Position numbers and translations under genes: made by a program. From an uncultured Gammaproteobacteria bacterium (GTDB lineage: Bacteria; Patescibacteriota; Patescibacteriia; UBA9934): a stretch of DNA of 64,000 nucleotides. The notes under the pieces are model-generated. The model saw only the letters and a list, made by a program, of their open reading frames with translations, was not told where the DNA came from and ran no database searches. Shown one piece after another: positions 2,707 to 61,033 of the stretch; within the stretch, counting starts at the first letter, position 1; each line of letters begins with the position of its first letter. Location of the stretch: assembly GCA_964452565.1 (NCBI GenBank), contig CAYVLY010000001.1, positions 142,638-206,637 on the forward strand, in the 5' to 3' direction.

Positions 2707-3687
2707 ATGGAGGTTTTTACAAATATAATATTTCTGCTAGCTGGTTTTTTCATGCTGGTGAAAGGTGCTGACTATCTTATTGATGGATCAAGCTCAATTG
2801 CAAAGCGATTTGGGATTCCAACACTGGTTATTGGACTTACAGTTGTTGCCTTTGGTACATCAGCTCCCGAGATAGTGGTTAATGTTGTTGCGGCCATTTC
2901 AGATAATCCCGAGATTGCACTTGGAAACATTAATGGAACAGTTATAGCGAATACATTACTGATCCTTGGTGTTGGAGCAATGCTTGCTCGAATTCCAGTG
3001 AGAAGCAGGACGGTAATGAAAGAAATTCCTTTCATGCTTTTGGCAGCTGTTGTACTTCTAATCTTTTCATTAGACCAAGTCCTAAACGGAGATGCACAAG
3101 CTACATTGTCAAGGATTGATGGAATCATAATGATTCTTGTTTTTTGTGTCTTCTTATATTATTTATTCCTATCAGTCCAAGGACTTCCAAAAAAGCGTGA
3201 ACGCGCAAAGATGAGCGTTAAGAAGGCCACTGGCCTAACAATTGTTGGATTATTTGGTTTAGTCCTTGGTGCGAATCTTACGGTTGATGGCGCATCGGGT
3301 TTGGCGCTTGCGGTTGGAATCTCTGAATCTCTTGTAGCACTCACAGTTGTTGCTGTGGGGACATCGCTGCCTGAACTTGCCGCGGCAATCACAGCTGCTC
3401 GTAAGCGTGAAACTGACCTGGCGATCGGTGCAGTGGTTGGATCGAATATATTTGATATTCTTCTTGGACTTGGACTATCAGCAACAATGGCGCCAATGAT
3501 AATATCAAGCTCGGTTATCACTGATATTGCAATTGTATTTGCTTCATTGGTCATTCTTATGATTGCGCTATTCATACCGGAGCGAATGAAACCAGAAGAT
3601 GGTGGACGTGGGTTAGATAAACGTTCGGGTTTGATTCTATTAGGACTTTACGCACTTTATATTGTATATATCGTGATTCGAGGGTAA
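2707..3687 (+). CDS. Ca2+/cation antiporter (CaCA family, YrbG-like)
   Basis: Two alpha-repeat motifs GTSAPEIVV and GTSLPELAA in a polytopic membrane protein. Confidence 0.75.
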   Translation: MEVFTNIIFLLAGFFMLVKGADYLIDGSSSIAKRFGIPTLVIGLTVVAFGTSAPEIVVNVVAAISDNPEIALGNINGTVIANTLLILGVGAMLARIPVRSRTVMKEIPFMLLAAVVLLIFSLDQVLNGDAQATLSRIDGIIMILVFCVFLYYLFLSVQGLPKKRERAKMSVKKATGLTIVGLFGLVLGANLTVDGASGLALAVGISESLVALTVVAVGTSLPELAAAITAARKRETDLAIGAVVGSNIFDILLGLGLSATMAPMIISSSVITDIAIVFASLVILMIALFIPERMKPEDGGRGLDKRSGLILLGLYALYIVYIVIRG

Positions 3688-15468: not shown

Positions 15469-15481
15469 TCCGGGGTAGCTC
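15469..15481 (+). repeat. partial copy of tRNA-Asn 5' end (13 nt) followed by palindromic GC-rich sequence
   Basis: TCCGGGGTAGCTC is identical to the start of the intact tRNA at 15856. Confidence 0.5.
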
Positions 15482-15550
15482 CCGCCTTCGTTCCTATCGG
15501 AACTTCGGCGGGCAGGCAGCATGCAAATGCCGCTTCGCTACCCTAATTAT

Positions 15551-15601
15551 TCCGGGGTAGCTCAGCGGCACCTGCCTGCCGGCAGGCAGGGAGCAATTGG
15601 C
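15551..15601 (+). repeat. partial copy of tRNA-Asn 5' half (nt 1-20 and 21-31) split by a 20-nt perfect palindrome
   Basis: TCCGGGGTAGCTCAGCGGCA[cctgcctgccggcaggcagg]GAGCAATTGGC matches tRNA-Asn positions 1-31. Confidence 0.6.
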
Positions 15602-15607
15602 GCAATT

Positions 15608-15865
15608 ATGAAATATACAATTTACGCCATTAAGAGCAAGAAAGATAAAAGAGTATACGTCGGCTTTACAGATAATCTTAATAGACGTTTAAGAGAACAT
15701 AATTCGGGGTTTGTAAAATCTACTAAGGGTTACAAACCTTGGATCGTGTTCTATACTGAACAGACCCACCTTCGATCTGAGGCTAGACGAAGAGAAAAAT
15801 ACCTCAAATCAGGTTGTGGAAAAGAGTTTCTGAAATCAGTTAGAGATAACAACATTCCGGGGTAG
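15608..15865 (+). CDS. GIY-YIG nuclease family protein (UPF0213/YhbQ-like)
   Basis: MKYTIYAIKSKKDKRVYVGFTDNLNRRLREHNSG... GIY-YIG core; 3' end runs into tRNA-Asn. Confidence 0.65.
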   Translation: MKYTIYAIKSKKDKRVYVGFTDNLNRRLREHNSGFVKSTKGYKPWIVFYTEQTHLRSEARRREKYLKSGCGKEFLKSVRDNNIPG

Positions 15866-15930
15866 CTCAGCGGCAGAGCAATTGGCTGTTAACCAATGGG
15901 TCGTGGGTTCGAATCCCACCCCCGGAGCCA
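15856..15930 (+). tRNA. tRNA-Asn(GTT)
   Basis: Manual fold: acceptor TCCGGGG/CCCCGGA, D-arm GCTCAGCGGCAGAGC, anticodon stem ATTGG/CCAAT with loop CTGTTAA, T-arm GTGGGTTCGAATCCCAC, encoded CCA. Confidence 0.85.
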
Positions 15931-17541
15931 AGAAGAATGGATGGTAGAAATACCTTCCATTTTTCTTTTGTCTTGGCTATTTTTGTTTGGTTCTAACCTT
16001 AGGTACTCCTTTTCGAGTTCAGGATAGCTCTCTGCGATAGGTACGAACCATTCGTTCAGTTGAATCTTTAGGTTTCCGTCAATAATCTCAAAGTCTGATC
16101 CGAGAGCATTAAGAATCTCACGCTTAGTTCTAACGTCTCCATTTAAGAACCTCGTGTGAGCGTATGTTGCAAAATCAAAAGTCTGCTCTGTAAGCTCTAT
16201 CCATTTTTCTGCTCGTTGTTCTGTTCGTTCGATTTCTGACTTGTACTTTTCTAACTCGGACTTGATGCGTGCCTTTTCTTTTAGGTATTCCTCATCATTT
16301 ATGAGTTCCTTTATCCTCATCTTTGTAAGGCTGTCCATCTCATTCTGCTTCATCTGATAAGCCTTTGTTTGAGTTTCGTAAACCTGAGTTCGTTTCTTTA
16401 CTTCTTTTTCATGTTCATTGCCCAACACCTCAAGAGCCCAGTCCCGAAACTGCGGAAGAATCGTGATTTTTATAAGTTCACGTTCAATCTGCTCTTCGAT
16501 GTTCTCAACTCGTAGGTTTTTGCGCTGTGTGCAGTCAATATCACGCTTTTTGTTCGTACAATGATAGTAAGTGTAGTGTTTTACCTCTTTCGTTGACTTG
16601 ATGAACTTTTGCTTGGTTTGTGCTGTGTAGTTACAGCCACATTCTCCGCATCTAATCATTCCAGTAAATGAAAACTCATGTGTTCTGGGCCTTGGCTTTC
16701 CCCGTTTGCCAAGTAGCCTTTGAACACGGTCAAACTCATCGAGGGTGATCATGGGCTCGTGTGCACCCTGTTTCCATTCTTTACGATATGAAAATAAACC
16801 AGCATAAAAGGCGTTGTTGAATATTCTATAAACTCCGCTGTATGAAAGAGGATTTCCCCCTATACGTTTCATTTTTCTACTAGTCAGGCCCCATTCGTTA
16901 TTTGCTATATCTACGATTTGCCTTGGTGTATACGTGCCAGTAAGCATAAGGTCCCACATCTTCCTTACTATTTGGAACCGATCTGGGTCTGGGATAATGA
17001 TATGCGTTTCATCGTCTGTAACATGGTTCAGATATCCCAGAGGAGCCATATTGGGCATCCAGCCCAATTCAACCTTTCGCTCCATGCCTCTGATGGTATT
17101 TTTTCTAAGATCAAGGATGAATTGGTTCGCAACACCGCTCTCAACACTCAAAATCAAGGCATTGTCATTTGGTCTGTACTCTCTATCAAATGTGCGAACT
17201 GATTGAAGTATCTCTTTTTGCAAAAGCCACTGGATAGTCCCGCTATCAACTGGGTTTCTCGATAGACGATTGATTTGCCAGCAGAGAATACCCTCAGCGT
17301 CACCTTTACGAATTCTTTGAATCATATCCTCAAAAACAGGCCTATTGTTTGGCTGCTTTGCCGACTTGGACTCTGTGAGACGATCAACAACTGTCAGACC
17401 AAGCTCTTTTGCGAGCTTGTCTAATCTTTCGAGCTGATCATCAATTGATTGTACCTGCCGATCCTCACTTTCTGAGGACTTTCTAGCGTATATAAAGTAT
17501 TTCATATAATCGTAATCAAAAGGACGGTTCTGGCTACCCAA
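15889..17541 (-). CDS. large serine recombinase (resolvase/integrase family)
   Basis: N-terminal catalytic domain YARKSSESEDRQVQSIDDQ... (Ser-recombinase motif); recombinase and zinc-ribbon domains (CGECGC...YYHC); C-terminal 18 aa are antisense translation of tRNA-Asn. Confidence 0.85.
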   Translation of the reverse strand: MGSQNRPFDYDYMKYFIYARKSSESEDRQVQSIDDQLERLDKLAKELGLTVVDRLTESKSAKQPNNRPVFEDMIQRIRKGDAEGILCWQINRLSRNPVDSGTIQWLLQKEILQSVRTFDREYRPNDNALILSVESGVANQFILDLRKNTIRGMERKVELGWMPNMAPLGYLNHVTDDETHIIIPDPDRFQIVRKMWDLMLTGTYTPRQIVDIANNEWGLTSRKMKRIGGNPLSYSGVYRIFNNAFYAGLFSYRKEWKQGAHEPMITLDEFDRVQRLLGKRGKPRPRTHEFSFTGMIRCGECGCNYTAQTKQKFIKSTKEVKHYTYYHCTNKKRDIDCTQRKNLRVENIEEQIERELIKITILPQFRDWALEVLGNEHEKEVKKRTQVYETQTKAYQMKQNEMDSLTKMRIKELINDEEYLKEKARIKSELEKYKSEIERTEQRAEKWIELTEQTFDFATYAHTRFLNGDVRTKREILNALGSDFEIIDGNLKIQLNEWFVPIAESYPELEKEYLRLEPNKNSQDKRKMEGISTIHSSWLRGWDSNPRPIG

Positions 17542-21958: not shown

Positions 21959-22570
21959 ATGAATGCTATCAAAGAAAAGTTGCTAAAGACTATAAGATCA
22001 AATATAAAGTATAAATCTATACAGGATATAGATCGTATTGATTTCAAGTCCTTTAAAGCACTTATAAGGGCAGTTGAGATGGGTGAAATAAAATTAGGCA
22101 TGGATAACACCGCTGCTAATCAACTGGCAAGAACGAAGATATTTGGAGCTTTTAGCTTTTACCTTTTTATGTTCCTAGCAGCGTCTTGGATGTGGGTTTC
22201 CATTGCTGCGATTGTATTGGCCGTTTTAATGTCGGAATATTGGCTACTGGCTGCTATCCCAGTTTCTATTATCGGGTTGATGACTGCTAATCCGTATAAT
22301 CCAGCAAAAAAGTTTTTTAGCCTAGTATTCATCATTCTCTGCATTTACGTATTATTCGGATTAATAGGTGGCTTTGAGACACTGCACTATTTGTCACTCT
22401 CCTACGTTATTGTATTTCTGGCGACAGCCTATGTTTATGACATGAACCAAAAGCTAATGCATGATTTAGCACTGGAGTCGGAGGAATGGTTTATTTATCT
22501 ATTTCAAAGTAGAGCCGTAGCGATTTTGGAAGATGGCAAGAATCCTATAACGGAAGAGATCGAGTTATGA
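21959..22570 (+). CDS. polytopic membrane hypothetical protein
   Basis: Several hydrophobic helices. Confidence 0.35.
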   Translation: MNAIKEKLLKTIRSNIKYKSIQDIDRIDFKSFKALIRAVEMGEIKLGMDNTAANQLARTKIFGAFSFYLFMFLAASWMWVSIAAIVLAVLMSEYWLLAAIPVSIIGLMTANPYNPAKKFFSLVFIILCIYVLFGLIGGFETLHYLSLSYVIVFLATAYVYDMNQKLMHDLALESEEWFIYLFQSRAVAILEDGKNPITEEIEL

Positions 22571-23223
22571 ATGAGTATTCAAAAGAACTAGCTGCGAAAT
22601 ACACTCAAGGGCGTGATGAGTTTAAGGATGCTGACTCAAAGCTCTTTGAATTTGTACAACGAGTTGGCATTGAAGATAAGGACGTGCTGGATCTTGGATG
22701 TGGAGATGGAAGATATGCTGCAAAGTTTATCGAAATGGGTGCAGGGAGTGCTAAGGGTATTGATATAAGCCCTGCAATGATTGAATTGGCCAAGGAGCGA
22801 CGAAGTAACATCGAATTCACAATTGGAGACGCAGTAGATTTGCCATATGAAGATAATAGCTTTGACATTATCTTTAGCAACTTTGTACTTCAGCACTGTA
22901 AAGATACTCGAAAGGTCTTTAATGAAATTGCACGAGTATTAAGAAAAGATGGATATTTTGTCGGTACATTTAACTCAATAGACACTGATAATAAGGGAAT
23001 CCTGAATCAGGAGATGCCCATTCTACTCGGTCAAGATAATCCAATTACTGTTTACGACCTAATGAAGCTCGATGAAGAGTATCTTGAAGCCATTAAAGAC
23101 GCTGGACTGGAAGTGATTGAATACGTCGACGAACCAAATGCCTGCGCCTTTATAGATCCAAATTTCGAGCACTATTCGGATATTAAAAAGTTAAAGACTA
23201 TCGCTTGTTTGTTAAGAAAATAA
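22567..23223 (+). CDS. class I SAM-dependent methyltransferase
   Basis: Motif I VLDLGCGDGRY; DIIFSNFVLQH. Confidence 0.65.
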   Translation: MNEYSKELAAKYTQGRDEFKDADSKLFEFVQRVGIEDKDVLDLGCGDGRYAAKFIEMGAGSAKGIDISPAMIELAKERRSNIEFTIGDAVDLPYEDNSFDIIFSNFVLQHCKDTRKVFNEIARVLRKDGYFVGTFNSIDTDNKGILNQEMPILLGQDNPITVYDLMKLDEEYLEAIKDAGLEVIEYVDEPNACAFIDPNFEHYSDIKKLKTIACLLRK

Positions 23224-23224
23224 T

Positions 23225-23725
23225 ATGAACATTGCATTAGATGATAAGCTGGAGAAAGCAGTCCGACTGCTCATTGAGTACGTTCCTGAGGAAAAGGATC
23301 GAAAAAAGAACATAATTACACATGCTCTCAGGGTCGGAATGTACCTTTATGAGAATAATTACTCAGAAGATGTTGTAATTGCTGGATTTTTACACGATAT
23401 AGTTGAATGGACTGATAGCCCGCAGGAGACACTTCGGGAAGAATTCGGTCAGCATGTGTTGGATATAGTACTCGCAAATACTAAAGATAGAAATATTGAA
23501 GATAAGCCAGAGCGAAGAAGGGATATGATTGAGCGCTGTCAAAGCGTTGGGAAGGACGCCCTTATCGTGAAGGCCGCAGACACAATTGATAGCTATAACT
23601 TTTATAGATCGGCAAACAACCCAGATGAGACGCAAAGAGCAATCGACATAGCAAAACTTTTATCAAGCGTGGTTACACAGGAGGAGAAAGATCCAATTTT
23701 CGATAAGTTAAGTGCTCTTGAATAG
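23225..23725 (+). CDS. HD-domain phosphohydrolase
   Basis: HALRVGMYL ... AGFLHDIVE (H...HD motif). Confidence 0.6.
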   Translation: MNIALDDKLEKAVRLLIEYVPEEKDRKKNIITHALRVGMYLYENNYSEDVVIAGFLHDIVEWTDSPQETLREEFGQHVLDIVLANTKDRNIEDKPERRRDMIERCQSVGKDALIVKAADTIDSYNFYRSANNPDETQRAIDIAKLLSSVVTQEEKDPIFDKLSALE

Positions 23726-24172
23726 TTCTAACAGCATCAACCGTGCGGAGCCATGAAGGAGTGACCAGTTTTGGTCGCTTTTTCTTTTTGGTCACCCTTC
23801 ATGGCTGTCGCCCTAAGTGATACGAGCCCAGCGAGTATCTACTTCTGGGCGAGCCATAGTATAATTAGGGCATGTATTACGTTTACATATTAAAATGTAG
23901 CGACAACAAATTCTACACGTGATACTCTGCAGACTTAAAGAAAAGGTTGCAATTACACCTATCTGGACGAGTGTTCTCGACCAAGGGTAGATTGCCAGTC
24001 GAGTTAGTATTCTATGAGGCATTTATAAATCAGCAAGATGCCAAGCGTCGTGAGATGTACTTGAAGACCACTGCTGGCAAAAGAGCAATTAAACTCATGC
24101 TTCGCAAATATCTCGCAAAACAATAACTTACAGTGTTATTTTGTATACCCATCGTGAACAGCGGAACTGTGG
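23721..24172 (+). repeat. direct repeat copy 1 (~450 bp) carrying GIY-YIG gene; near-identical to 25603..26054
   Basis: Identical sequence apart from the first ~25 nt; contains long hairpin GCCATGAAGGAGTGACC...GGTCACCCTTCATGGC, a TATAAT box, the GIY-YIG ORF and a terminal hairpin. Confidence 0.85.
23872..24126 (+). pseudogene. GIY-YIG (UPF0213) gene with in-frame TGA at conserved Gly codon (disrupted under code 11; intact if UGA=Gly)
   Basis: MYYVYILKCSDNKFYT[TGA]YSADLKKRLQLHLSG...LVFYEAF...; TGA at 23920-23922 replaces the Gly of the YTG motif. Confidence 0.6.
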
Positions 24173-24204
24173 TAAAATTATAAGTGTTAATATAATTGTG
24201 ATTT

Positions 24205-25065
24205 ATGATAGATAAACCAGTTCCCGAGGAGGCAAGAAAAGAATTTGAAAGGATGCAAAATCCAGAAATTGTCGCAACTGATTTAGAGGGTAATGCTCCT
24301 GAAGTTGGTGCTACAAAAATTATTATGCAGAGGCATGAAAAATATGTGCGGGGCGATGACGAGGGTCAGCCATTGGGTAGTCTAACTGAAGAATCAGCAG
24401 AAAAAGCATATCAACAAAGCAGAAGAATAGTTGAACAAATGCTAGATTCTATTGAGGATGATTTAGATGAGATCGATTTTCTTGTAGTTGGCAGTAGTAC
24501 ACAATATAAGGGCAAGGGACAAAGGAGCAGAGAGACTGCACAGCAAGCACTTCAAGCTTTACGTGACGTGCTTGAAGAGAGGGGTGTTGATGGTGGTCAG
24601 ATATTAAACAATAGATCAAAAGCAAAAGATGTAGCCACGATCACTCGAATGAGAGTAGATAGGATATTCAATGAATGGCCAGAGTACGCAGCTTTTCTTG
24701 AAGATAAATACGGAAATCAAACACAAAAATTTTGGCAGGCTTTTGAAGAAGATTGGCACCCTTATGAAAGAAGGGCATTTGGTGCAGAGGGGCCTGATGA
24801 AATGGACGAAAGATTTGCAAGTTATATAAAAACACTTGCTAAGTTTTCCGGTTTTCACCATTCAAAGCATCAAGATAGACGGCTGGTTCTCTGGAGCGTA
24901 TCGCATTACGATACAGTAAGTCCCTATATAAAACGTCACATAACTATGACGGATCCAAACCAATATGTGGCTGTTGATTACGGTGCAGGGATCAATATAG
25001 ATATTGATCCTGATGGGAATCCTACATGTGACTTTCGTGGGAAAAAATACGAAGTTAGTCTTTAG
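24205..25065 (+). CDS. histidine-phosphatase-superfamily-like protein (paralog of 28620..29522)
   Basis: RHEKY near N-terminus and LWSVSHYDTV (RH...SH motifs); aligns with the 28620 ORF. Confidence 0.4.
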   Translation: MIDKPVPEEARKEFERMQNPEIVATDLEGNAPEVGATKIIMQRHEKYVRGDDEGQPLGSLTEESAEKAYQQSRRIVEQMLDSIEDDLDEIDFLVVGSSTQYKGKGQRSRETAQQALQALRDVLEERGVDGGQILNNRSKAKDVATITRMRVDRIFNEWPEYAAFLEDKYGNQTQKFWQAFEEDWHPYERRAFGAEGPDEMDERFASYIKTLAKFSGFHHSKHQDRRLVLWSVSHYDTVSPYIKRHITMTDPNQYVAVDYGAGINIDIDPDGNPTCDFRGKKYEVSL

Positions 25066-25067
25066 AT

Positions 25068-25595
25068 ATGCTTACAAAGTTTTGTGACGCAGAAACGATC
25101 TTCAATAAGTTTCTAAAAAAGTATAAACAACATAAACGAGGTCTTTTCATCGTTGCACCATCGGGCGCAGGAAAGACATATTATGTTAATCATCAGGATG
25201 AATATGATTGGATTGATGGTGACGAAATTTGGATGGCAACAGGCGCTCAGCCTGACAGGGCATGGTGGACCGAGGGTTTAGAAGTTATAAATCACGTAGA
25301 TCAAAGGTGCGATGTTACAACTGAAGAGTGTAGACGTTTGGGATTATGGGTGATAGGAGCGTCCAACTCTTGGCTCATCCCTGATGCCGTAGTAATTCCA
25401 GATTTAAGAATTCAAAAAAAATACATAGTCAAGCGTGAAGACGAAGCATATGACGGAGGTGCAACGAGCAAGGACTTTGATCAAGTTATTTCTCATAGAA
25501 AGATAATTCTAAACCACGCTAAGAAAAATAAAGTGCCAGTATTCAAAACTATCGAGGAGGCAGTGGCTTTTCTCAGGAAGAAGTACAGTATGTAA
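25068..25595 (+). CDS. P-loop NTPase / small kinase-like protein
   Basis: Walker A VAPSGAGKTYYV. Confidence 0.45.
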   Translation: MLTKFCDAETIFNKFLKKYKQHKRGLFIVAPSGAGKTYYVNHQDEYDWIDGDEIWMATGAQPDRAWWTEGLEVINHVDQRCDVTTEECRRLGLWVIGASNSWLIPDAVVIPDLRIQKKYIVKREDEAYDGGATSKDFDQVISHRKIILNHAKKNKVPVFKTIEEAVAFLRKKYSM

Positions 25596-25602
25596 GCATG
25601 TT

Positions 25603-26054
25603 AATAGTTCTAATATCCTCCACGATGCGGAGCCATGAAGGAGTGACCAGTTTTGGTCGCTTTTTCTTTTTGGTCACCCTTCATGGCTGTCGCCCTAAGT
25701 GATACGAGCCCAGCGAGTATCTACTTCTGGGCGAGCCATAGTATAATTAGGGCATGTATTACGTTTACATATTAAAATGTAGCGACAACAAATTCTACAC
25801 GTGATACTCTGCAGACTTAAAGAAAAGGTTGCAATTACACCTATCTGGACGAGTGTTCTCGACCAAGGGTAGATTGCCAGTCGAGTTAGTATTCTATGAG
25901 GCATTTATAAATCAGCAAGATGCCAAGCGTCGTGAGATGTACTTGAAGACCACTGCTGGCAAAAGAGCAATTAAACTCATGCTTCGCAAATATCTCGCAA
26001 AACAATAACTTACAGTGTTATTTTGTATACCCATCGTGAACAGCGGAACTGTCA
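25603..26054 (+). repeat. direct repeat copy 2 (~450 bp) carrying GIY-YIG gene
   Basis: Offset 1882 bp from copy 1, identical interior. Confidence 0.85.
25754..26008 (+). pseudogene. GIY-YIG (UPF0213) gene copy 2 with the same in-frame TGA (25802-25804)
   Basis: Identical to 23872..24126. Confidence 0.6.
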
Positions 26055-26068
26055 TAAAATATGAAGTT

Positions 26069-26719
26069 ATGAAATTCTATTTATCATCCTATAAAATTGG
26101 GTCAGAAGATTCACAGGCCAAGTTCAAAAACTTACTTGGTGACAATAAAAAAGCTGCCTATATCTCTAATGGTCTTGACTTGGCTCCTTCTGAGGCAAAG
26201 AAAAAACATGAAGAACGAGATATTAGAGAGCTCAATGGAGTTGGTCTGCAAGTCGAACAGGTTGATTTAAGAAATTACTTCGGTAAAAAGGACGATATCA
26301 GAGTTAAGTTAACAGGCTTTGGTGTTTTTTACTTAAGCGGGGGCAACGTTTACGATCTCCGCATTGCCATGAATCTTAGCGGTCTAGATGAAATACTTCT
26401 AGAACTTGTAGATTCAGATATTATTTATTCAGGTTACAGTGCAGTAGTTTGTGTTCTCTCACCAACACTGAAGGGCTACCATATCATCGATGATCCAAAT
26501 AAAAAAACGTATGGGAACTACGATACAATCTGGAAAGGGCTCGGATTCATTAGCTGGCAATTTGCGCCACACTTTAATTCCGACCATGAAGAGTCAGAAG
26601 ATATAAATAAAGAAGTTGCTTATTACACTGAAAATGACATGCCTTATAAAACGCTGGCAGATGGCGACGTCATTATTTTGCAAAGAGAGGAGTTAGACGG
26701 CCCCGCAATTATGAAGTAG
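26069..26719 (+). CDS. peptidase S51-like (dipeptidase E/cyanophycinase family) protein
   Basis: FYLSGGNVYDL and YSGYSAVVCVL resemble the GGNTF and SAG motifs of peptidase E; start chosen after the repeat. Confidence 0.45.
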   Translation: MKFYLSSYKIGSEDSQAKFKNLLGDNKKAAYISNGLDLAPSEAKKKHEERDIRELNGVGLQVEQVDLRNYFGKKDDIRVKLTGFGVFYLSGGNVYDLRIAMNLSGLDEILLELVDSDIIYSGYSAVVCVLSPTLKGYHIIDDPNKKTYGNYDTIWKGLGFISWQFAPHFNSDHEESEDINKEVAYYTENDMPYKTLADGDVIILQREELDGPAIMK

Positions 26720-26834
26720 ATTAACAAACGGAGCCACAAAAAGAGATAGGTATAATACATATCTCTTTTTGTTGTTTCGTGTCTGAGGGTTTTAAGCCAC
26801 TGGGTTCGGGCAGCTAGGATATAGGGAGGTGCCC

Positions 26835-26863
26835 TTGACTAGAATGATGTAAACATATACATT
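26835..26863 (+). promoter_or_regulatory. candidate sigma70 promoter of deoD cassette
   Basis: TTGACT-17nt-TACATT, then strong SD AAGGAGG 8 nt before ATG. Confidence 0.3.
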
Positions 26864-26898
26864 CTTTGTGACCTGGATTCCAACAAGGAGGTGAACCC

Positions 26899-27639
26899 AT
26901 GTCGATTCATATCGGAGCCAAGGAAGGGGAAATCGCCCCTGTCGTCCTCATGCCTGGGGACCCTGCGCGTGCCCGGCGCATCGCACAGAGCTTGTTCGGT
27001 GCTGACACCAGGCCTTACCACAAAGTGCGTGACAACCCAAGCTTCACCGGCCGTGTCACTCGGGACGGAGTCGAACTTCACGTCTCGGTGCAGGCATCGG
27101 GCATGGGCATACCCTCGTTCGGGATCTACGCTACAGAACTCTACGATGAGTACGATGTCAAGGTCATCATCCGCGTGGGCACGTTCGGTATCATGCATCC
27201 GGACATGAGCCCTGGAGATCTCGCTATCGCCCAGTGCGCGAGCACAGATGCGAGCTTCATCAAGCGCTGGTTCAAGGGTGCGAACTTCTCCCCACCCGCT
27301 GACCCTGAGCTGCTCTTCAATGCTCAGATGGCCGCACGCGAGCAAGGCCTGCAGGTACGTGTCGGCAACATCCTGAGCACTGACATCTTCTATGACAAGG
27401 ATCATCCGGAAGCGTGGAAGCTCTGGCCGCGCTTCGGTATACTAGGTGTTGAGATGGAGGCAGCGATGCTCTACACGCTTGCCGCACGCAGGCATGACAA
27501 GGGCTGTCGCGCACTCGCCATCCTCACTGCCAGCGACCACCTCGAGACGGGCGCTCAGATGAGTGCCGAGGAGCGCGAGACCTGCTTCCCAAGGATGCTC
27601 GACCTCGCCCTGGCTAGCGTCGTGCCTCTCTACGCCTGA
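26899..27639 (+). CDS. deoD: purine nucleoside phosphorylase, DeoD-type (high-GC, foreign-looking)
   Basis: MSIHIGAKEGEIAPVVLMPGDPARARRIA...GMGIPS...ILGVEMEAA... matches DeoD-type PNP throughout; GC-rich codon usage unlike neighbours. Confidence 0.85.
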   Translation: MSIHIGAKEGEIAPVVLMPGDPARARRIAQSLFGADTRPYHKVRDNPSFTGRVTRDGVELHVSVQASGMGIPSFGIYATELYDEYDVKVIIRVGTFGIMHPDMSPGDLAIAQCASTDASFIKRWFKGANFSPPADPELLFNAQMAAREQGLQVRVGNILSTDIFYDKDHPEAWKLWPRFGILGVEMEAAMLYTLAARRHDKGCRALAILTASDHLETGAQMSAEERETCFPRMLDLALASVVPLYA

Positions 27640-27673
27640 TCCGCAGTCGATTTCATCGTGACCATGCATGGTC

Positions 27674-27711
27674 CTCCCGCCCCAAGCTCTCTGAGCTGCG
27701 GCGGGATTTTT
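27674..27711 (+). terminator. rho-independent terminator of deoD cassette
   Basis: CCCGCC...GCGGCGGG hairpin followed by ATTTTT. Confidence 0.55.
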
Positions 27712-27754
27712 GCTAGAATGATGATGTTATAAGGAACTGGAAAAGTTTAACAAG

Positions 27755-27832
27755 ATGATGATCGGACGAGAACGGAAGATGGTTGAGCTAAAGAAACGAA
27801 TAGCTGAACTTGAAAAATCTCAAAATGGATAG
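27755..27832 (+). pseudogene. 25-codon remnant homologous to C-terminal coiled-coil of PAS protein at 2..496
   Basis: MMIGRERKMVELKKRIAELEKSQNG vs ...MTGREEKMMELKKELKVARSK. Confidence 0.35.
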
Positions 27833-27955
27833 CTCCAAATAGTATCAAACAGATGGAATAACAGAATTAAATAAAAAACACCCATAAACCGCTATTGGGT
27901 GTTTTTTATTTTTATAGATGCACCATAAGGCAAGAATTTGCTATAATATACAGAT

Positions 27956-28618
27956 ATGAAGTTAGAACTAAATGCCAAGAAAATACTTAAAACGCTCCTG
28001 CTTATCAATCTCATTTTGATAATCATGCACCTTATTTCGCAGTTCATGCTTTTAAATTTTGAGTATTCTGAGGCGCTTGCGAACTTTGCATTTAGATTTA
28101 ACATGGATGTTGAATCAAGTGTCCCAACATGGTTCGCTATTGTACTTTTATTTTCAACAGCACTACTCCTATTACTTATTGGTCTGAAGACGCGAAAAAA
28201 GAAGCAAAAAAAGTACTGGCTTGCGCTTTCTGCAGTTGTTCTATATATGAGCATTGATGAGGCCTCGGTTATACACGAGCTAATGAATGAGCCAATGCAA
28301 CAATTATTTGGTATTACAAGCGGGCCTTTGTTCTTTGCCTGGATCATACCTTTCTCATTGGTAGTATTGATTGTGGTGGCTGTATTTGCAAAATTTTACT
28401 GGTCGTTAGATCGTAAAACAAAATTGCTATTCGCGTTGGCTGTGAGCCTATTCATCCTTGGCGCAATAGGCGTTGAAATGATCTCAGCGGCACACTGGCA
28501 ATCACAGGACTTCCAGTACGACTACACCTACCGCATCCTCAATGCCTTTGAGGAGGGCTTGGAGAACTTTGGAACGATAACCGCAATCTACGCACTTAGC
28601 TTAAAACTAACAAAATAA
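27956..28618 (+). CDS. polytopic membrane hypothetical protein
   Basis: 220 aa, multiple TM helices. Confidence 0.4.
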   Translation: MKLELNAKKILKTLLLINLILIIMHLISQFMLLNFEYSEALANFAFRFNMDVESSVPTWFAIVLLFSTALLLLLIGLKTRKKKQKKYWLALSAVVLYMSIDEASVIHELMNEPMQQLFGITSGPLFFAWIIPFSLVVLIVVAVFAKFYWSLDRKTKLLFALAVSLFILGAIGVEMISAAHWQSQDFQYDYTYRILNAFEEGLENFGTITAIYALSLKLTK

Positions 28619-44202: not shown

Positions 44203-45340
44203 GGAAAAAGCCCTAAAACCGAAAAAAGAAAAAGCCCAGGAGATTGCGGCTAAAGTTGAAGTTCCTGAAAAAAAGAAAGTTTCGCTTCTGACAAAACTTA
44301 ATGTAAGGCTTGGCTCTAAAGAGAAAGTGCTTTTTGTTAAGTACTTATCAGTACTGCTCGAATCAGGACTACCCCTAGATCAAGCACTGGATATCCTCTT
44401 AAATCAATCAAAGGGTCCGCTTAAGAAGATTCTTGAATCAGTGTCAGCTGAAATCAGAAATGGAAAACAGTTAGCAGATGGACTTGAACATTATCCACAC
44501 ATTTTCTCAGAAGTATTTATCAATCTGATAAGGGCAGGGGAAAACACTGGAACACTTAAAGAAAATCTGGCCTACTTAGCAGAGCAAGCACAAAAGCAAT
44601 ACGATTTAAAGCAAAGCATCCGTGGATCAATGATGTATCCAATCATTGTTTTAATTGGTGGAGTCATCGTGAGCATATTCATAATCTTATTCATCTTTCC
44701 AAATATTGTTGCACTTTTCGAAACATTGAATGTTGAACTGCCATTAGCAACCCGAATTTTACTATGGATCGCAAACGTGTTTGAAAACTACCCATGGCAC
44801 CTTATTTCAACAATCATCGCGATCATTATCTTATTCATAATTGCACGAAAGGTCCAATTTACACGTTATTTTCTTGATCAAATCTTTCTCCGCATTCCGA
44901 TCATCGGTAGAATCCTTCGCGACAGCACACTTTCTAATGTATTCCGGTTACTTGGTACATTGCTCGAAAGTGGAATGCCACTCAAGCAATCGATAAAAGT
45001 TACAAGGTCCACCGCCAACAACATGGTATTCCAAAGGATGTTTGACGAGCTGGATACACGAGTAACTCAAGGTGGAGAACTTGTAACAGTACTACGAAAA
45101 TATGATCATATTGTTCCGCTGATGTCTGTACGGCTGATTCATGTTGGAGCGCAAACTGGTGAACTTGAACACATGTTGCTGTATTTGGCAGACTTTTACA
45201 GTAAGGAAGTTGACGAGCTTTCAAAACGCATCTCTGTAATCATTGAACCAGTTCTAATAATTGCGATCGGATTTATGATCGGATTTTTGGCTTTTGCAAT
45301 TATAACTCCTATCTATGAAGTTATTACAAGTGTAGGATGA
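44195..45340 (+). CDS. pilC: type IV pilus platform protein PilC (GspF family)
   Basis: Two T2SS-F domains; ATG overlaps the pilB stop. Confidence 0.8.
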   Translation: MNKEKALKPKKEKAQEIAAKVEVPEKKKVSLLTKLNVRLGSKEKVLFVKYLSVLLESGLPLDQALDILLNQSKGPLKKILESVSAEIRNGKQLADGLEHYPHIFSEVFINLIRAGENTGTLKENLAYLAEQAQKQYDLKQSIRGSMMYPIIVLIGGVIVSIFIILFIFPNIVALFETLNVELPLATRILLWIANVFENYPWHLISTIIAIIILFIIARKVQFTRYFLDQIFLRIPIIGRILRDSTLSNVFRLLGTLLESGMPLKQSIKVTRSTANNMVFQRMFDELDTRVTQGGELVTVLRKYDHIVPLMSVRLIHVGAQTGELEHMLLYLADFYSKEVDELSKRISVIIEPVLIIAIGFMIGFLAFAIITPIYEVITSVG

Positions 45341-56025: not shown

Positions 56026-56689
56026 AGGCGCACTTTATATAGTAGGAACACCAATCGGAAACCTCAGTGATATATCTGAGCGTGCTATTGAGACTCTCAA
56101 GGCTGTTGATTTGATTGCCTGCGAGGATACGCGTGTCACCAAAAAGTTGCTTTCGAACTACTCGATCGATACGCCAACAATCTCCTATCACCAACACTCA
56201 GATGATAAGAAGCTTGCTGATTTGATTAAAAAGCTGCAAAGCGGATCATCGATCGCGCTTGTTACTGATGCTGGCACTCCAGGGCTATCTGATCCTGGAG
56301 GAAAGCTTGTAGAGGCCGCAGTTCAATCAGAGATCGAAATCGTGCCCATACCAGGAGTATCGGCACTCACAACAGCACTAAGCATAAGTGGATTCCCAAC
56401 AGACAAGTTCACGTTCATGGGTTTCCCACCAAACAAAAAGGGAAGAAAAACGTACTTTGATCTAATCAATAAGACTGATCAAACCGTCGCTCTGTACGAA
56501 TCAAAACACCGAATTGTCAAAACACTAGAGCAACTACCTCAGGACCGAATAACAATGGTAGGCCGCGAACTAACAAAGATGCATGAACAGATCTACCGTG
56601 GAACAGCATCGGAAATTACTGAACAGCTCAATCAAACATCAACAAAAGGCGAATTTGTAATCGTCCTAGCACCAAAAAAATATGAATAA
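56015..56689 (+). CDS. rsmI: 16S rRNA (cytidine1402-2'-O)-methyltransferase
   Basis: GALYIVGTPIGNLSDISERA...ACEDTR tetrapyrrole-methylase fold. Confidence 0.75.
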   Translation: MKNKGALYIVGTPIGNLSDISERAIETLKAVDLIACEDTRVTKKLLSNYSIDTPTISYHQHSDDKKLADLIKKLQSGSSIALVTDAGTPGLSDPGGKLVEAAVQSEIEIVPIPGVSALTTALSISGFPTDKFTFMGFPPNKKGRKTYFDLINKTDQTVALYESKHRIVKTLEQLPQDRITMVGRELTKMHEQIYRGTASEITEQLNQTSTKGEFVIVLAPKKYE

Positions 56690-58133
56690 GTTCTACATTA
56701 CAACAGCAATTCCTTATGTGAATGCCAGTCCCCACATCGGATTTGCTTTAGAGCTCATTCAAACTGATGCCGCAGCGCGATACTGGCGAACACAACTCGG
56801 AGATGAAAATATTCATGCCTTGACTGGATCAGATGAGAACAGTCTTAAGAATGTTCAAGCAGCAGAGGCTGCAGGTGAAGATGTTAATTCATTTGTTGAG
56901 CGACATGCTGAAGAGTTTAAGTCACTTGGTGGGCTTTTGAACTTGTCTTTTGATGATTTTATACGCACACGTGAAGATCGACATATTGATGGAGCTCAGA
57001 AACTTTGGAGCGCTTGCAAGCCAGAAGACATTTACAAAAAATCATATAAAGGACTTTACTGCGTTGGATGCGAGACTTTCTACACTGAAAAGGAATGTCC
57101 TGAGAAAGTCTGTCCTGAGCATAAGAAGCCGCTTGAAGTAATCGAAGAGGAAAACTATTTCTTCAAGCTATCGAACTATCAAAAGCAACTTGAAGAACTT
57201 ATAGAGTCAGATACGCTCAAGATAGTCCCAGAATCGCGCAAAAACGAGGTTTTAAGCTTTATTGAAGGCGGACTTGAGGATTTCTCCATCTCACGCTCTC
57301 AAGAGCGTGCAAAGCACTGGGGCGTTAATGTTCCAGGAGATGATTCACAAGTAATGTATGTATGGTTTGATGCTTTAAGTAACTACATTACAGCACTTGA
57401 CTATCAGAATGAAGGTGATCTATATCAGAAATACTGGACTGCAGATGACGTTAGAAAATCACATGTGATTGGAAAGGGAATACTGCGATTCCATGCTGTG
57501 TACTGGCCCGCAATGTTACTTTCTGCAGGGCTTCCACTCCCAGATGAAATCTTTGTGCATGGCTACATCACGGTTGAAGGTGAGAAGATATCAAAATCAT
57601 TACAAAACGGAATTCATCCAATAGTACTTGTTGATGACTTTGGAGTTGATGCAGTTCGATATTTCTTTTTGCGTGAGATCCCATCACATGGCGACGGAGA
57701 CTTTTCTATTACTCGAATGGAAGAACGCTATGCAGAACTTGCAAACCAACTCGGAAACCTTGTAAGCCGCGTCGCTGCAATGTCGAACAAGTACTTCGAG
57801 GGTAAGCTAGATAAGACCGACAAAGACTGGAGCAAGGTCGAGGGCGATTTACAGAATCTGATCGAAGAGTATGACTTCAAGAAATACCTTGAACGTGTTT
57901 TTGAAGTTATTTCAGATTCAAATGAACTAATCGATAAAAAAGAACCTTACAAACTTGTAAAAGAGGACGAGGCAGCAGCAAAAGCAGTTCTAAGTGAACT
58001 GGTAGCAAACATCCGATTCATTGGAAAAGCACTTTCACCAATCATCCCAGAAGCAGCGCAAGAAATTCTAAATCGCTACGAAGGTGATACAATACTTACA
58101 GGCGACCCTCTTTTCCCACGCCGCGATAACTAG
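56682..58133 (+). CDS. metG: methionyl-tRNA synthetase
   Basis: HIGH-like PYVNASPHIGFA; KMSKS-like KISKSLQNG; CxxC...CPxH zinc knuckle. Confidence 0.85.
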   Translation: MNKFYITTAIPYVNASPHIGFALELIQTDAAARYWRTQLGDENIHALTGSDENSLKNVQAAEAAGEDVNSFVERHAEEFKSLGGLLNLSFDDFIRTREDRHIDGAQKLWSACKPEDIYKKSYKGLYCVGCETFYTEKECPEKVCPEHKKPLEVIEEENYFFKLSNYQKQLEELIESDTLKIVPESRKNEVLSFIEGGLEDFSISRSQERAKHWGVNVPGDDSQVMYVWFDALSNYITALDYQNEGDLYQKYWTADDVRKSHVIGKGILRFHAVYWPAMLLSAGLPLPDEIFVHGYITVEGEKISKSLQNGIHPIVLVDDFGVDAVRYFFLREIPSHGDGDFSITRMEERYAELANQLGNLVSRVAAMSNKYFEGKLDKTDKDWSKVEGDLQNLIEEYDFKKYLERVFEVISDSNELIDKKEPYKLVKEDEAAAKAVLSELVANIRFIGKALSPIIPEAAQEILNRYEGDTILTGDPLFPRRDN

Positions 58134-59634: not shown

Positions 59635-59663
59635 GTTGACAAAAAATACGGCTCATTGTAAAT
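59635..59663 (+). promoter_or_regulatory. candidate sigma70 promoter of tRNA cluster
   Basis: TTGACA-17-TAAATT. Confidence 0.35.
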
Positions 59664-59675
59664 TGTCGCAGTTGT

Positions 59676-59751
59676 TGGGGAGTGGAGAAGTGGATCAACT
59701 CGCCGTATCCAGATTTGGTATTCGCTGGTTCGAATCCAGCCTCCCCAACCA
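59676..59751 (+). tRNA. tRNA-like gene with non-canonical anticodon arm (identity unresolved)
   Basis: Perfect 7-bp acceptor TGGGGAG/CTCCCCA, T-arm GCTGGTTCGAATCCAGC, encoded CCA; only possible anticodon stem GTATC/GGTAT with loop CAGATTT leaves a 2-nt variable region. Confidence 0.35.
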
Positions 59752-59762
59752 AACCCTTCCCT

Positions 59763-59835
59763 AGGCCCTTAGCTCAGTTGGTAGAGCAACTGATTCTTAA
59801 TCAGCTGGTCGGCGGTTCGAGTCCGCCCGGGCCTG
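59763..59835 (+). tRNA. tRNA-Lys(CTT)
   Basis: Manual fold; anticodon loop TTCTTAA. Confidence 0.8.
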
Positions 59836-59853
59836 TTCACTTCTTTGTCCCTT

Positions 59854-59926
59854 GTGGGTGTAGCTCAGTTGGTAGAGCAAGAGACTGAAAATCTCTGTGT
59901 CGGGGGTTCGAGTCTCCCCATCCACG
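59854..59926 (+). tRNA. tRNA-Phe(GAA)
   Basis: Manual fold; anticodon loop CTGAAAA. Confidence 0.85.
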
Positions 59927-59938
59927 TTATTTCTTGAG

Positions 59939-60014
<76 letters not shown>

Positions 60015-60024
60015 CCTCTTCAGA

Positions 60025-60097
60025 ACGCGGTTAGCTCAGTTGGTAGAGCACCTGACTACGGATCAGGAGGTTACTGGTTCGAACCCAGTACCGCGTG
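60025..60097 (+). tRNA. tRNA-Arg(ACG)
   Basis: Manual fold; loop CTACGGA. Confidence 0.85.
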
Positions 60098-60099
60098 TT

Positions 60100-60171
60100 A
60101 CCCGGTTAGCTCAGCGGTAGAGCACCTCCTTGGTAAGGAGGAGGTCGTAGGTTCAAGTCCTGCACCGGGTG
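60100..60171 (+). tRNA. tRNA-Thr(GGT)
   Basis: Manual fold; loop TTGGTAA. Confidence 0.8.
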
Positions 60172-60180
60172 CATGATCGT

Positions 60181-60706: not shown

Positions 60707-61033
60707 ATGAGCGACAAAACAAGCATAGACGAGATCAAAAAGGCTGAAAAAGCTGCTGAGCTTGAAATTGAACAAGCAAAGGCTGAGGCAGGTGAAGATG
60801 TGCGAGAAATTGATGAGCAGATGAAAGCAAGGTTTTCAGAAATCAAGGATACTTTAAACAACGAAAAGCAGGCACTGGCAGAGAAAGTACAAGCGCAAGC
60901 AAAAAAATTTAGAGATCAGTCAACAGAGGAGCTTAGGCAAAAGCTTGGCTCGATTGAGAGCGGAGCAGATGCACGAATCAATCAAGCAGCTGCGTCAGTT
61001 GTAAATAGTTTTACTGACTATGTCAGTAAGTAA
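60707..61033 (+). CDS. V-type ATPase small stalk subunit (H/G-like)
   Basis: 108-aa coiled-coil protein immediately upstream of subunit I. Confidence 0.4.
   Translation: MSDKTSIDEIKKAEKAAELEIEQAKAEAGEDVREIDEQMKARFSEIKDTLNNEKQALAEKVQAQAKKFRDQSTEELRQKLGSIESGADARINQAAASVVNSFTDYVSK

Follow-up and report, generated by a model that had tools for sequence, protein, structure and literature searches.

A duplicated unit with an interrupted nuclease gene

The window analyzed here, a stretch of 64,000 nucleotides of contig CAYVLY010000001.1 (assembly GCA_964452565.1), contains a 452-bp unit that occurs twice in direct orientation, and each copy carries an open reading frame (ORF) for a small GIY-YIG nuclease that is interrupted by an in-frame TGA. 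The left copy (A) and the right copy (B) are 100% identical across 427 nt (23744-24170 versus 25626-26052). At the left margin, 17 of the first 23 nt are identical between the copies (P = 6e-6) and six positions differ, and the similarity stops past ...GGAACTGT. This confirmed the first-pass annotation of the sequence, which had described two direct repeats differing only in about their first 25 nt. The left end of copy A falls on the stop codon of an HD-domain gene, and copy B begins 8 nt past a gene denoted Y, which lies together with gene X between the copies (Table 1). Neither copy adjoins a tRNA gene, and a tRNA-end-like stub is all that is found there. The GC fraction is 0.43 for the unit, 0.39 for its ORF, and 0.41 for the host.

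The ORF runs from the ATG at 23872 (25754 in copy B) to the TAA at 24124-24126 (26006-26008). Its translation reads MYYVYILKCSDNKFYT up to codon 17, which is the TGA, and continues as YSADLKKRLQLHLSG..., with YSADLKK... after the stop. When codon 17 was read as Gly, the translation matched the Pfam family GIY-YIG (PF01541, E = 2.5e-15) over residues 1-70 and could be aligned end to end with 276 database proteins, in which Gly17 is near-invariant. Residues Y5, Y15, R25, H29, and E49 are invariant in this alignment. The family profile matched PDB entries 1ZG2 (E = 2e-15) and 1YWL (3e-13) and an SLX1 homologue (1.6e-3), and the protein matched no phage homing-endonuclease PHROG. Membership in the UPF0213/COG2827 (Slx1-like) branch follows only when codon 17 is taken as Gly. 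The first-pass annotation had assigned the 84-codon ORF to GIY-YIG/UPF0213, placed the TGA on the invariant glycine of the YTG motif, and proposed an alignment across it as a check; all three were borne out by these matches.

Since the TGA is present in both copies, each encodes a 16-residue peptide only, and neither offers the intact frame of an active enzyme to the host. The 67 codons beyond the TGA remain open and conserved. In a collection of 15 billion proteins, the truncated product, products of alternative starts, read-through versions with W or G at codon 17, and the antisense ORF were all absent. The closest among 5.8 billion proteins were all full-length with Gly17 and reached 75% amino acid identity, and no truncated fragment of more than 75% similarity was present among these matches. 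The best GIY match in the GTDB representative genomes was 65%. Codon 17 was compared in 96 homologous genes from 80 GTDB loci, where GGT was used 36 times, GGA 23, GGC 21, GGG 15, and GCT once; TGA was used in none of the 96. Selenocysteine at the TGA was considered and rejected, as Gly is invariant at the site and a recoding element was not detected.

Independent assemblies bear on whether the repeat is real. The Logan assemblies of runs SRR8146440 and SRR8146441 terminate exactly 30 nt within the identical core, and such breaks were seen at three junctions: left of A, left of B, and right of A. A break at this depth is the signature expected of a true repeat in a k = 31 graph, which indicates that the repeat is a real branch of the read graph. 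As regards the read support for both copies that the first-pass annotation had asked for, the breaks at three junctions in two runs fit a two-copy arrangement as well as one copy plus a circle. An artefact was weighed on the same evidence: The T at 23920/25802 would be a consensus error, or a 427-bp repeat would have been collapsed and threaded twice, or the genome would hold one copy and a circular R-X-Y, where R is the repeat. In the graph, a single shared core is entered by two paths and left by at least one distinct path, an arrangement that fits HD-R-X-Y-R-S51 and HD-R-S51 plus a circle equally, and the core sequence was not recovered from independent assembly. However, both left junctions and the right junction of A are present in the Logan data, the NCBI assembly spans the region within a 709-kb contig, and consensus substitution errors are rare at good coverage. 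The absence of a full-length G or W version from the 15-billion-protein collection points the same way. We regard such an artefact as very improbable.

Table 1. Positions of the duplicated unit, its parts, related features of the window, and bracketed cassettes at other loci.
Feature	Position	Strand	Remarks
Cassette copy A, whole repeat unit	23721-24172	+	Size and layout agree with the 458-bp cassette of L099 bounded by tRNA-end repeats
Cassette copy B, whole repeat unit	25603-26054	+	Identical to copy A over 25626-26052
GIY-YIG (UPF0213/Slx1-type) ORF of copy A, 84 codons, interrupted at codon 17	23872-24126	+	
In-frame TGA at the YxG glycine, copy A	23920-23922	+	
Same GIY-YIG ORF, copy B	25754-26008	+	TGA at 25802-25804
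Left margin: T-loop-like GTTCTAA and pseudo tRNA 3' end (...GCGGAGCCA)	23721-23753	+	
Hairpin 1: long stem including the ...GCCA end, starting in ...GCGGAGCCA	23749-23806	+	Fold z = -5.6
Hairpin 2: stem 23809-23851 with tail AGCCA, ending ...GGGCGAGCCA	23809-23856	+	Conserved, covaries in close homologues
TATAAT, -10-like box	23860-23865	+	6 nt before the ATG, read from the sequence
3' flank (TTTTnTAtACCC...GAACnTGTG)	24127-24170	+	Conserved with L087 and L088
Gene X, 286 aa, without family match	24205-25065	+	76% amino acid identity to a gene of L089
Gene Y, 175 aa, P-loop GAGKT, without family match	25068-25595	+	
Intact paralogous GIY-YIG gene, 39% identical, mirror-type cassette	15608-15865	+	Stop overlaps the start of tRNA-Asn
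tRNA-Asn(GTT)	15856-15930	+	
Partial copies of the tRNA-Asn 5' end upstream of the paralogue	15469-15601	+	Each next to a palindrome
Bracketed cassettes at other loci	L099:2797-3328; L008:5430-5890; L020:5848-6300; L048:713-1320		Direct repeat of 18 nt of the upstream tRNA end

Cassette anatomy and linkage to tRNA genes

The non-coding parts of the unit occur in the same order in the close homologues L087, L085, L004, L084, and L099 (fetched loci are given by such labels). The position of the stub (...GAGCCA) is that of the end of a real tRNA in L087, L084, and L099. In L004 a tRNA 3' half occupies this position, and no complete tRNA was detected in that locus. The 150 nt upstream of the ORF fold strongly into two hairpins, with z = -5.6 for this whole stretch. 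A terminator scan located a small terminator-like hairpin with a T-run inside hairpin 1 (23755-23784); as the host tRNA-Asn is followed by a hairpin of the same style on its GCCA end (15927-15976), hairpin 1 resembles a tRNA terminator. For hairpin 2, 5 of the 14 predicted pairs showed compensatory changes across five loci. The 5' structured region matched no Rfam family at the gathering score, and a permissive search gave chance-level matches only (E > 5). A TATAAT-like box is positioned mostly about 6-11 nt before the ATG in L087, L088, L085, L004, L084, L013, and L099. A strict sigma-70 scan did not call the box of the window; by its sequence and position, it suggests that the transcript may be leaderless. 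The 3' flank may be a decayed, displaced tRNA 3' end.

The relatives of the cassette are systematically located at tRNA genes. Among the 99 family genes at the fetched loci, 54 have a same-strand tRNA no more than 250 nt upstream or 100 nt downstream, and for 37 of the genes this tRNA falls in the interval from 23 nt before the stop codon to 100 nt past it. With about 45 tRNAs in a genome of about 1 Mb, we estimate that such linkage would arise by chance at well below 1%. The clearest case was found in L099 (Ca. Uhrbacteria, GCA_001791655.1), where the last 18 nt (ATCCCTGTCCGGGAACCA) of tRNA-Gln(CTG) at 2797-2870 recur exactly at 3311-3328. This second ATCCCTGTCCGGGAACCA copy lies 50 nt beyond the GIY stop with a plain terminator behind it, and the unit between the 18-nt repeats measures 458 bp against 452 bp in the window. 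The duplicated tRNA 3' end starts in the T-loop, between GGTTCGA and ATCC; it is exact in L099 and L008 and has 1-2 mismatches in L020 and L048. The size and layout of the window unit match those of the L099 cassette, and the unit looks like a mobile cassette, as the first-pass annotation had proposed. In L008, two cassettes are arranged in tandem behind a single tRNA-Ser.

A mirror form of the cassette is also common. Here a full tRNA directly adjoins the GIY stop, and a partial copy of that tRNA, beginning from nt 1, is located 20-130 nt before the ATG. More than 20 significant cases were observed, and the long partial copies extend to the vicinity of the T-loop. At L084:4533-5255, tRNA-Gln(TTG) lies between two different GIY-YIG genes, one at its 5' end (mirror) and one past its 3' end, which indicates that both polarities can occupy one tRNA gene.

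The window itself holds a mirror-type cassette at tRNA-Asn. Its paralogous GIY-YIG gene has GGC at the site of the TGA, in line with the GGN reported there by the first-pass annotation. Nucleotides 1-13 of tRNA-Asn recur at 15469-15481, nt 1-20 at 15551-15570, and nt 21-31 at 15591-15601. These partial copies are interleaved over 15469-15610 with GC-rich palindromes such as CCTGCCTGCCGGCAGGCAGG (DNA fold z = -6.0), and the region looks like a set of repeated insertion scars. The 3' half of tRNA-Asn is overlapped on the opposite strand by a gene for a large serine recombinase (15889-17541) with Resolvase, Recombinase, and Zn-ribbon domains. An integrated element may accordingly lie on the right side of tRNA-Asn, in the region with the DUF3800, methyltransferase, and HD genes and both cassettes; a second tRNA-Asn 3' end marking the far end of such an island is absent from the window.

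Genetic code of the host and origin of the stop codon

The host methionyl-tRNA synthetase (56682-58133) is 72-73% identical to proteins of Candidatus Uhrbacteria, and the other matches are to Patescibacteria. The host is an Uhrbacteria-like member of the Patescibacteria. In its DNA, TGA terminates 10 of the 60 ORFs of at least 150 aa, and ATGA start/stop overlaps occur at 22567-22570 and 45337-45340. The window was also scanned for a TGA joining two open stretches of at least 60 codons, with the tRNA-gene cluster at 59640-60173 set aside as not protein-coding; none was found outside this cluster and the ORF-covered regions. Furthermore, a UCA anticodon is absent from the eight tRNAs of the window. 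TGA is a stop codon in this host. The first-pass annotation had reached the same view and had named the TGA scan and the search for tRNA-Gly(UCA) as checks on it, and both came out in its favor within the window.

The same annotation had taken the TGA as a signature of genetic code 25 (UGA = Gly) and of recent import. The proposal is that the cassette came from a UGA = Gly lineage (Gracilibacteria/Absconditabacteria) with the TGA as its original Gly codon, was dead on arrival, and was then duplicated. It was examined by using a degenerate DNA pattern of the first 25 codons with TGA required at codon 17, which matched both window copies and gave no match in shuffles. Its GGN form recovered 45 of the approximately 99 fetched family genes, including the close relatives L004 and L084-L088. 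The TGA pattern matched six loci in JGI metagenomes and nothing in viral contigs. Four distinct genes were taken as code 25 (L093 = L096, L094, L095, and L097), each with 2-6 in-frame TGAs at Gly, so that code-25 members of the cassette family do exist and have TGA at the same codon. GIY-YIG genes have also been reported among those that Patescibacteria exchange (PMC12455944).

TGA makes up 15 of the 19 Gly codons in the four code-25 genes versus one of four in the window ORF. Readability was measured as the fraction lying in stop-free stretches of at least 100 codons under code 11. This fraction was 0.23 for L094 and 0.47 for L097, the two code-25 contigs long enough for the measure, which are hence unreadable under code 11, and approximately 1.0-1.2 for the window, L004, L006, L084, and L085. 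The code-25 homologues share 37-56% identity with the window protein, while GGN-encoding homologues reach 75% (65-75% for the nearest). In a neighbor-joining tree, the window protein is positioned inside a GGN clade and the code-25 sequences rank 42nd to 51st of 52 by distance; none of 100 bootstraps placed a code-25 sequence with it in a clade of 10 tips or fewer. The named best GIY matches belong to Andersen-, Uhr-, and Magasanikbacteria, near the host's own group. No close TGA relative appeared in the JGI metagenomes even though the GGN pattern recovers close relatives, the non-coding flanks are common to relatives on contigs that read under code 11, and the GC fraction of the element is like that of the host. 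The ORF has neither several TGA-Gly codons, nor code-25 closest relatives, nor a UGA-decoding context within the window. A code-25 origin of the cassette is not supported, and import from such a lineage is improbable to a high degree.

GGN-encoding relatives, shared flanks, and code-11 contigs together make a nonsense mutation (GGA to TGA) the simplest reading. GGA is the codon in 23 of the 96 family genes, from which a single G-to-T change is enough. A comparable case is present in L092 (Ga0180007_10262214, 1078 bp), where two tandem cassettes precede tRNA-Ser(GCT), one with GGG and the other with TGA at codon 17. Its remaining Gly codons are all GGN, and the neighboring phosphoribosyltransferase gene ends in TGA at its natural C-terminus. 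This contig is probably code 11, and the same nonsense outcome has then probably arisen elsewhere in a code-11 setting.

Several points weigh against this explanation. Among the 52 single-base nonsense changes possible in the ORF, two are GGA to TGA, which makes a stop that hits a Gly codon a 4% coincidence under a single-base nonsense model; by the same count, import accounts more readily for a TGA exactly on the invariant Gly. In the long ORFs of L094 and L097, TGA constitutes 37-42% of Gly codons, so that a single TGA among four Gly codons would not stand out in a code-25 gene (with P ~0.2 for GGN at the other three). At codon 17, GGT predominates among the closest homologues, which would require two changes, and neither an intact GGA allele nor a tRNA-adjacent master of the exact cassette occurs within the 64-kb window. 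Collapse of the repeat in assembly could account for part of the perfect identity between the cores, and no significant direct repeat was detected between the left and right margins of the unit (728 of 2000 shuffles score as high). The codon-level evidence alone would favor import by roughly five to one, which is outweighed by relatedness, flanks, and the rarity of cross-code transfer. On balance, we judge it likely that the window holds a nonsense-inactivated, recently homogenized pair of orphan cassettes, which belong to a tRNA-targeting GIY-YIG family native to the host lineage.

The TGA might instead be functional, in that low-level readthrough or suppression of UGA would give a trickle of nuclease and limit the toxicity of a selfish endonuclease. 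UGA is the leakiest bacterial stop codon, the downstream codons are open and conserved, and one L092 cassette has TGA at the same position. However, near-cognate decoding would put Trp at an invariant catalytic Gly, the base following the TGA is U, which is not a known leaky context in E. coli, and a recoding signal was looked for without success. A very recent mutation would likewise leave the downstream frame open, and a single case like that of L092 in a very large family is compatible with chance. A functional TGA is accordingly given hardly any credence. Had the import first proposed held, the unit would have been one of the rare records of genes crossing from one genetic code to another; as it stands, the case cautions that a stop codon on a conserved Gly is insufficient to call code 25.

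Three side observations concern the window and the records compared. The first gene of the eight-tRNA cluster (59676-59751) is atypical: ARAGORN gives it a four-base anticodon 'ccag', its Rfam tRNA score is 41.8 bits versus 60-72 for its neighbors, and a 7-nt loop CAGAUUU, with anticodon GAU and A at position 33, is an alternative. The gene may encode an unusual decoder or be a pseudo-tRNA. A 652-aa protein encoded at 61020-62978 resembles models of V-type ATP synthase subunit I below their curated cut-offs. Lastly, L007, L009, L016, L019, L023, L028, L030, L032, and others titled 'uncultured Gammaproteobacteria bacterium' carry cassettes of the type seen in the Candidate Phyla Radiation (CPR). 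The same GTDB records have dense tRNA-Ser/Arg arrays, as in metagenome-assembled genomes of Patescibacteria, and their taxonomic labels may be unreliable.

Origin of the second copy and biology of the cassette family

No family was found for genes X and Y in Pfam, NCBIfam, or PADLOC. Of the labels first given to them, the P-loop of Y is visible as GAGKT, while 'histidine-phosphatase-like' for X obtained no match in these databases. The X-Y pair is 75% identical at the nucleotide level in L089, where no cassette or GIY repeat is nearby, and its presence in this unrelated context indicates that the pair is portable. The genes that neighbor cassettes at other loci show no relation to X or Y. The X-Y module recurs at 76-84% amino acid identity in a different neighborhood of another metagenome (L089:9138-10453; L090), and the last ~35 codons of the Y homologue there are replaced by unrelated sequence. 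A composite transposon or unit flanked by insertion sequences was rejected, since the flanking gene is a truncated nuclease and not a transposase, no inverted repeats occur within 22000-28000, and no terminal repeat is significant. The flanking direct repeats might in principle allow excision of X and Y.

The diverged margin next to the identical core points to a recent copying tract that ended at about 23744, and the stop mutation must be older than this event. An alternative retains the same nonsense mutation and differs on the origin of the second copy without invoking cassette mobility: An X-Y circle carrying one cassette would have integrated by homologous recombination into a resident copy (Campbell-type), which gives R-X-Y-R. 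The portability of X-Y is in keeping with it, direct repeats around an insert are the classic product of a single crossover, and the read graph fits a free circle. However, it presupposes that the two cores were identical beforehand while their left margins differed, the boundaries of the repeat are the natural cassette boundaries of other genomes rather than arbitrary breakpoints, and no cassette stands beside X-Y in L089. We hold this route to be unlikely, though less so than the other alternatives.

Under the nonsense-inactivation explanation, the 452-bp repeat is one complete small selfish cassette of a kind common in Patescibacteria. Its five parts in order are a tRNA-3'-end-like stub with terminator hairpin, a covarying hairpin, a -10 box, a catalytic-domain-only nuclease gene, and a 3' flank. 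The cassettes of relatives reside in or next to a tRNA gene, and in the clearest cases they are inserted in the T-loop together with a replacement tRNA end, which preserves the tRNA and leaves a direct repeat of 18 nt behind. By analogy with SegB of phage T4, we infer that the T-loop in the DNA of tRNA genes, or else a hairpin structure, would be the site of cleavage by the nuclease and that the cassette would then be copied in by repair. The two orphan copies, positioned away from tRNA genes, share the nonsense change at the catalytic YxG glycine, most simply GGA to TGA. After this mutation, one copy may have been overwritten from the other, or both from a third, through gene conversion between older cassette sites or through homing in trans by an intact family member.

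A broader proposal, which we advance as possible and tentatively, is that cassettes of this family are undescribed, autonomous mini-cassettes of ~450 bp in code-11 and code-25 Patescibacteria, each with an 84-aa GIY-YIG nuclease that is a catalytic domain only, a covarying hairpin, and its own replacement tRNA end, which home into the T-loops of tRNAs of many isotypes without inactivating them, in two polarities and with tandem stacking. The window copies would then be dead members that came to lie, or survived, away from tRNA genes and were homogenized in trans. More speculatively, an Slx1-like nuclease may recognize the conserved hairpins as a structure-specific substrate.

Known systems resemble the family in part. 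Integrase-borne genomic islands enter tRNA genes in their 3' part, which they restore. Likewise, the cassette carries a replacement tRNA end, leaves the tRNA intact, and has a short tRNA-end direct repeat on its far side; it differs in having no integrase and a single 84-codon nuclease gene as cargo in ~450 bp, and its mirror form carries the tRNA 5' part. The UPF0213/COG2827 proteins of known structure (1ZG2, BH0048; 1YWL, EF2693) have the same size and single-domain layout; the weakly matched Slx1 (7WME) is a structure-specific endonuclease. Those proteins are annotated as hypothetical or repair-type, however, and a tRNA-linked cassette behavior was not found for them in the searchable literature. 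Code-25 genes of Gracilibacteria/Absconditabacteria share the TGA at the conserved Gly, the same codon in family members, and differ in the number of such codons, in contigs unreadable under code 11, and in their low identity.

The closest parallel is T4 SegB, a free-standing GIY-YIG homing endonuclease encoded among tRNA genes; the insertion point of the cassette is the T-loop at four loci. Seg enzymes are much larger and have a separate DNA-binding part, whereas the GIY-YIG domain fills residues 1-70 of the 84 aa here and leaves no separate DNA-binding domain. SegB is also a phage protein, and that of the window is cellular. Seg-type target placement holds for the family with its abutting tRNAs and T-loop duplications, but not for the window copies. 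The recognition site of SegB includes the conserved T-psi-C stem-loop motif (PMC2330249), its homologues co-localize with tRNA genes of many isotypes, and it drives segmental amplification of neighboring DNA (PMC13096335), which the R-X-Y-R layout parallels. The 18-nt tRNA-end duplication and the paired hairpins are cassette features that were not met with in the covered parts of these two sources. A precedent for homing in trans is T4 mobE, which mobilizes the defunct I-TevIII gene (PMC2790892). The window similarly has an intact paralogue, but at 39% identity and of the mirror type, and an action of it on copies A and B would be hypothetical.

A search for tRNA-linked UPF0213 or GIY-YIG cassettes in CPR yielded only the phage SegB work in the searchable literature. 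The family of cassettes represents a variant on the tRNA-associated GIY-YIG homing systems already known, one that was not found described there. It is the lasting outcome of the analysis, and the single stop mutation is an ordinary finding. Minimal GIY-YIG genes, mostly annotated just as 'GIY-YIG nuclease family protein', show a systematic association with tRNA genes in CPR, and the T-loop target duplications suggest a compact form of homing on an essential, universally conserved sequence with self-repair of the damage. If confirmed, this would explain a frequent unexplained feature of CPR tRNA loci, would give UPF0213 proteins a function in CPR, and would provide very small tRNA-gene-directed nucleases for study.

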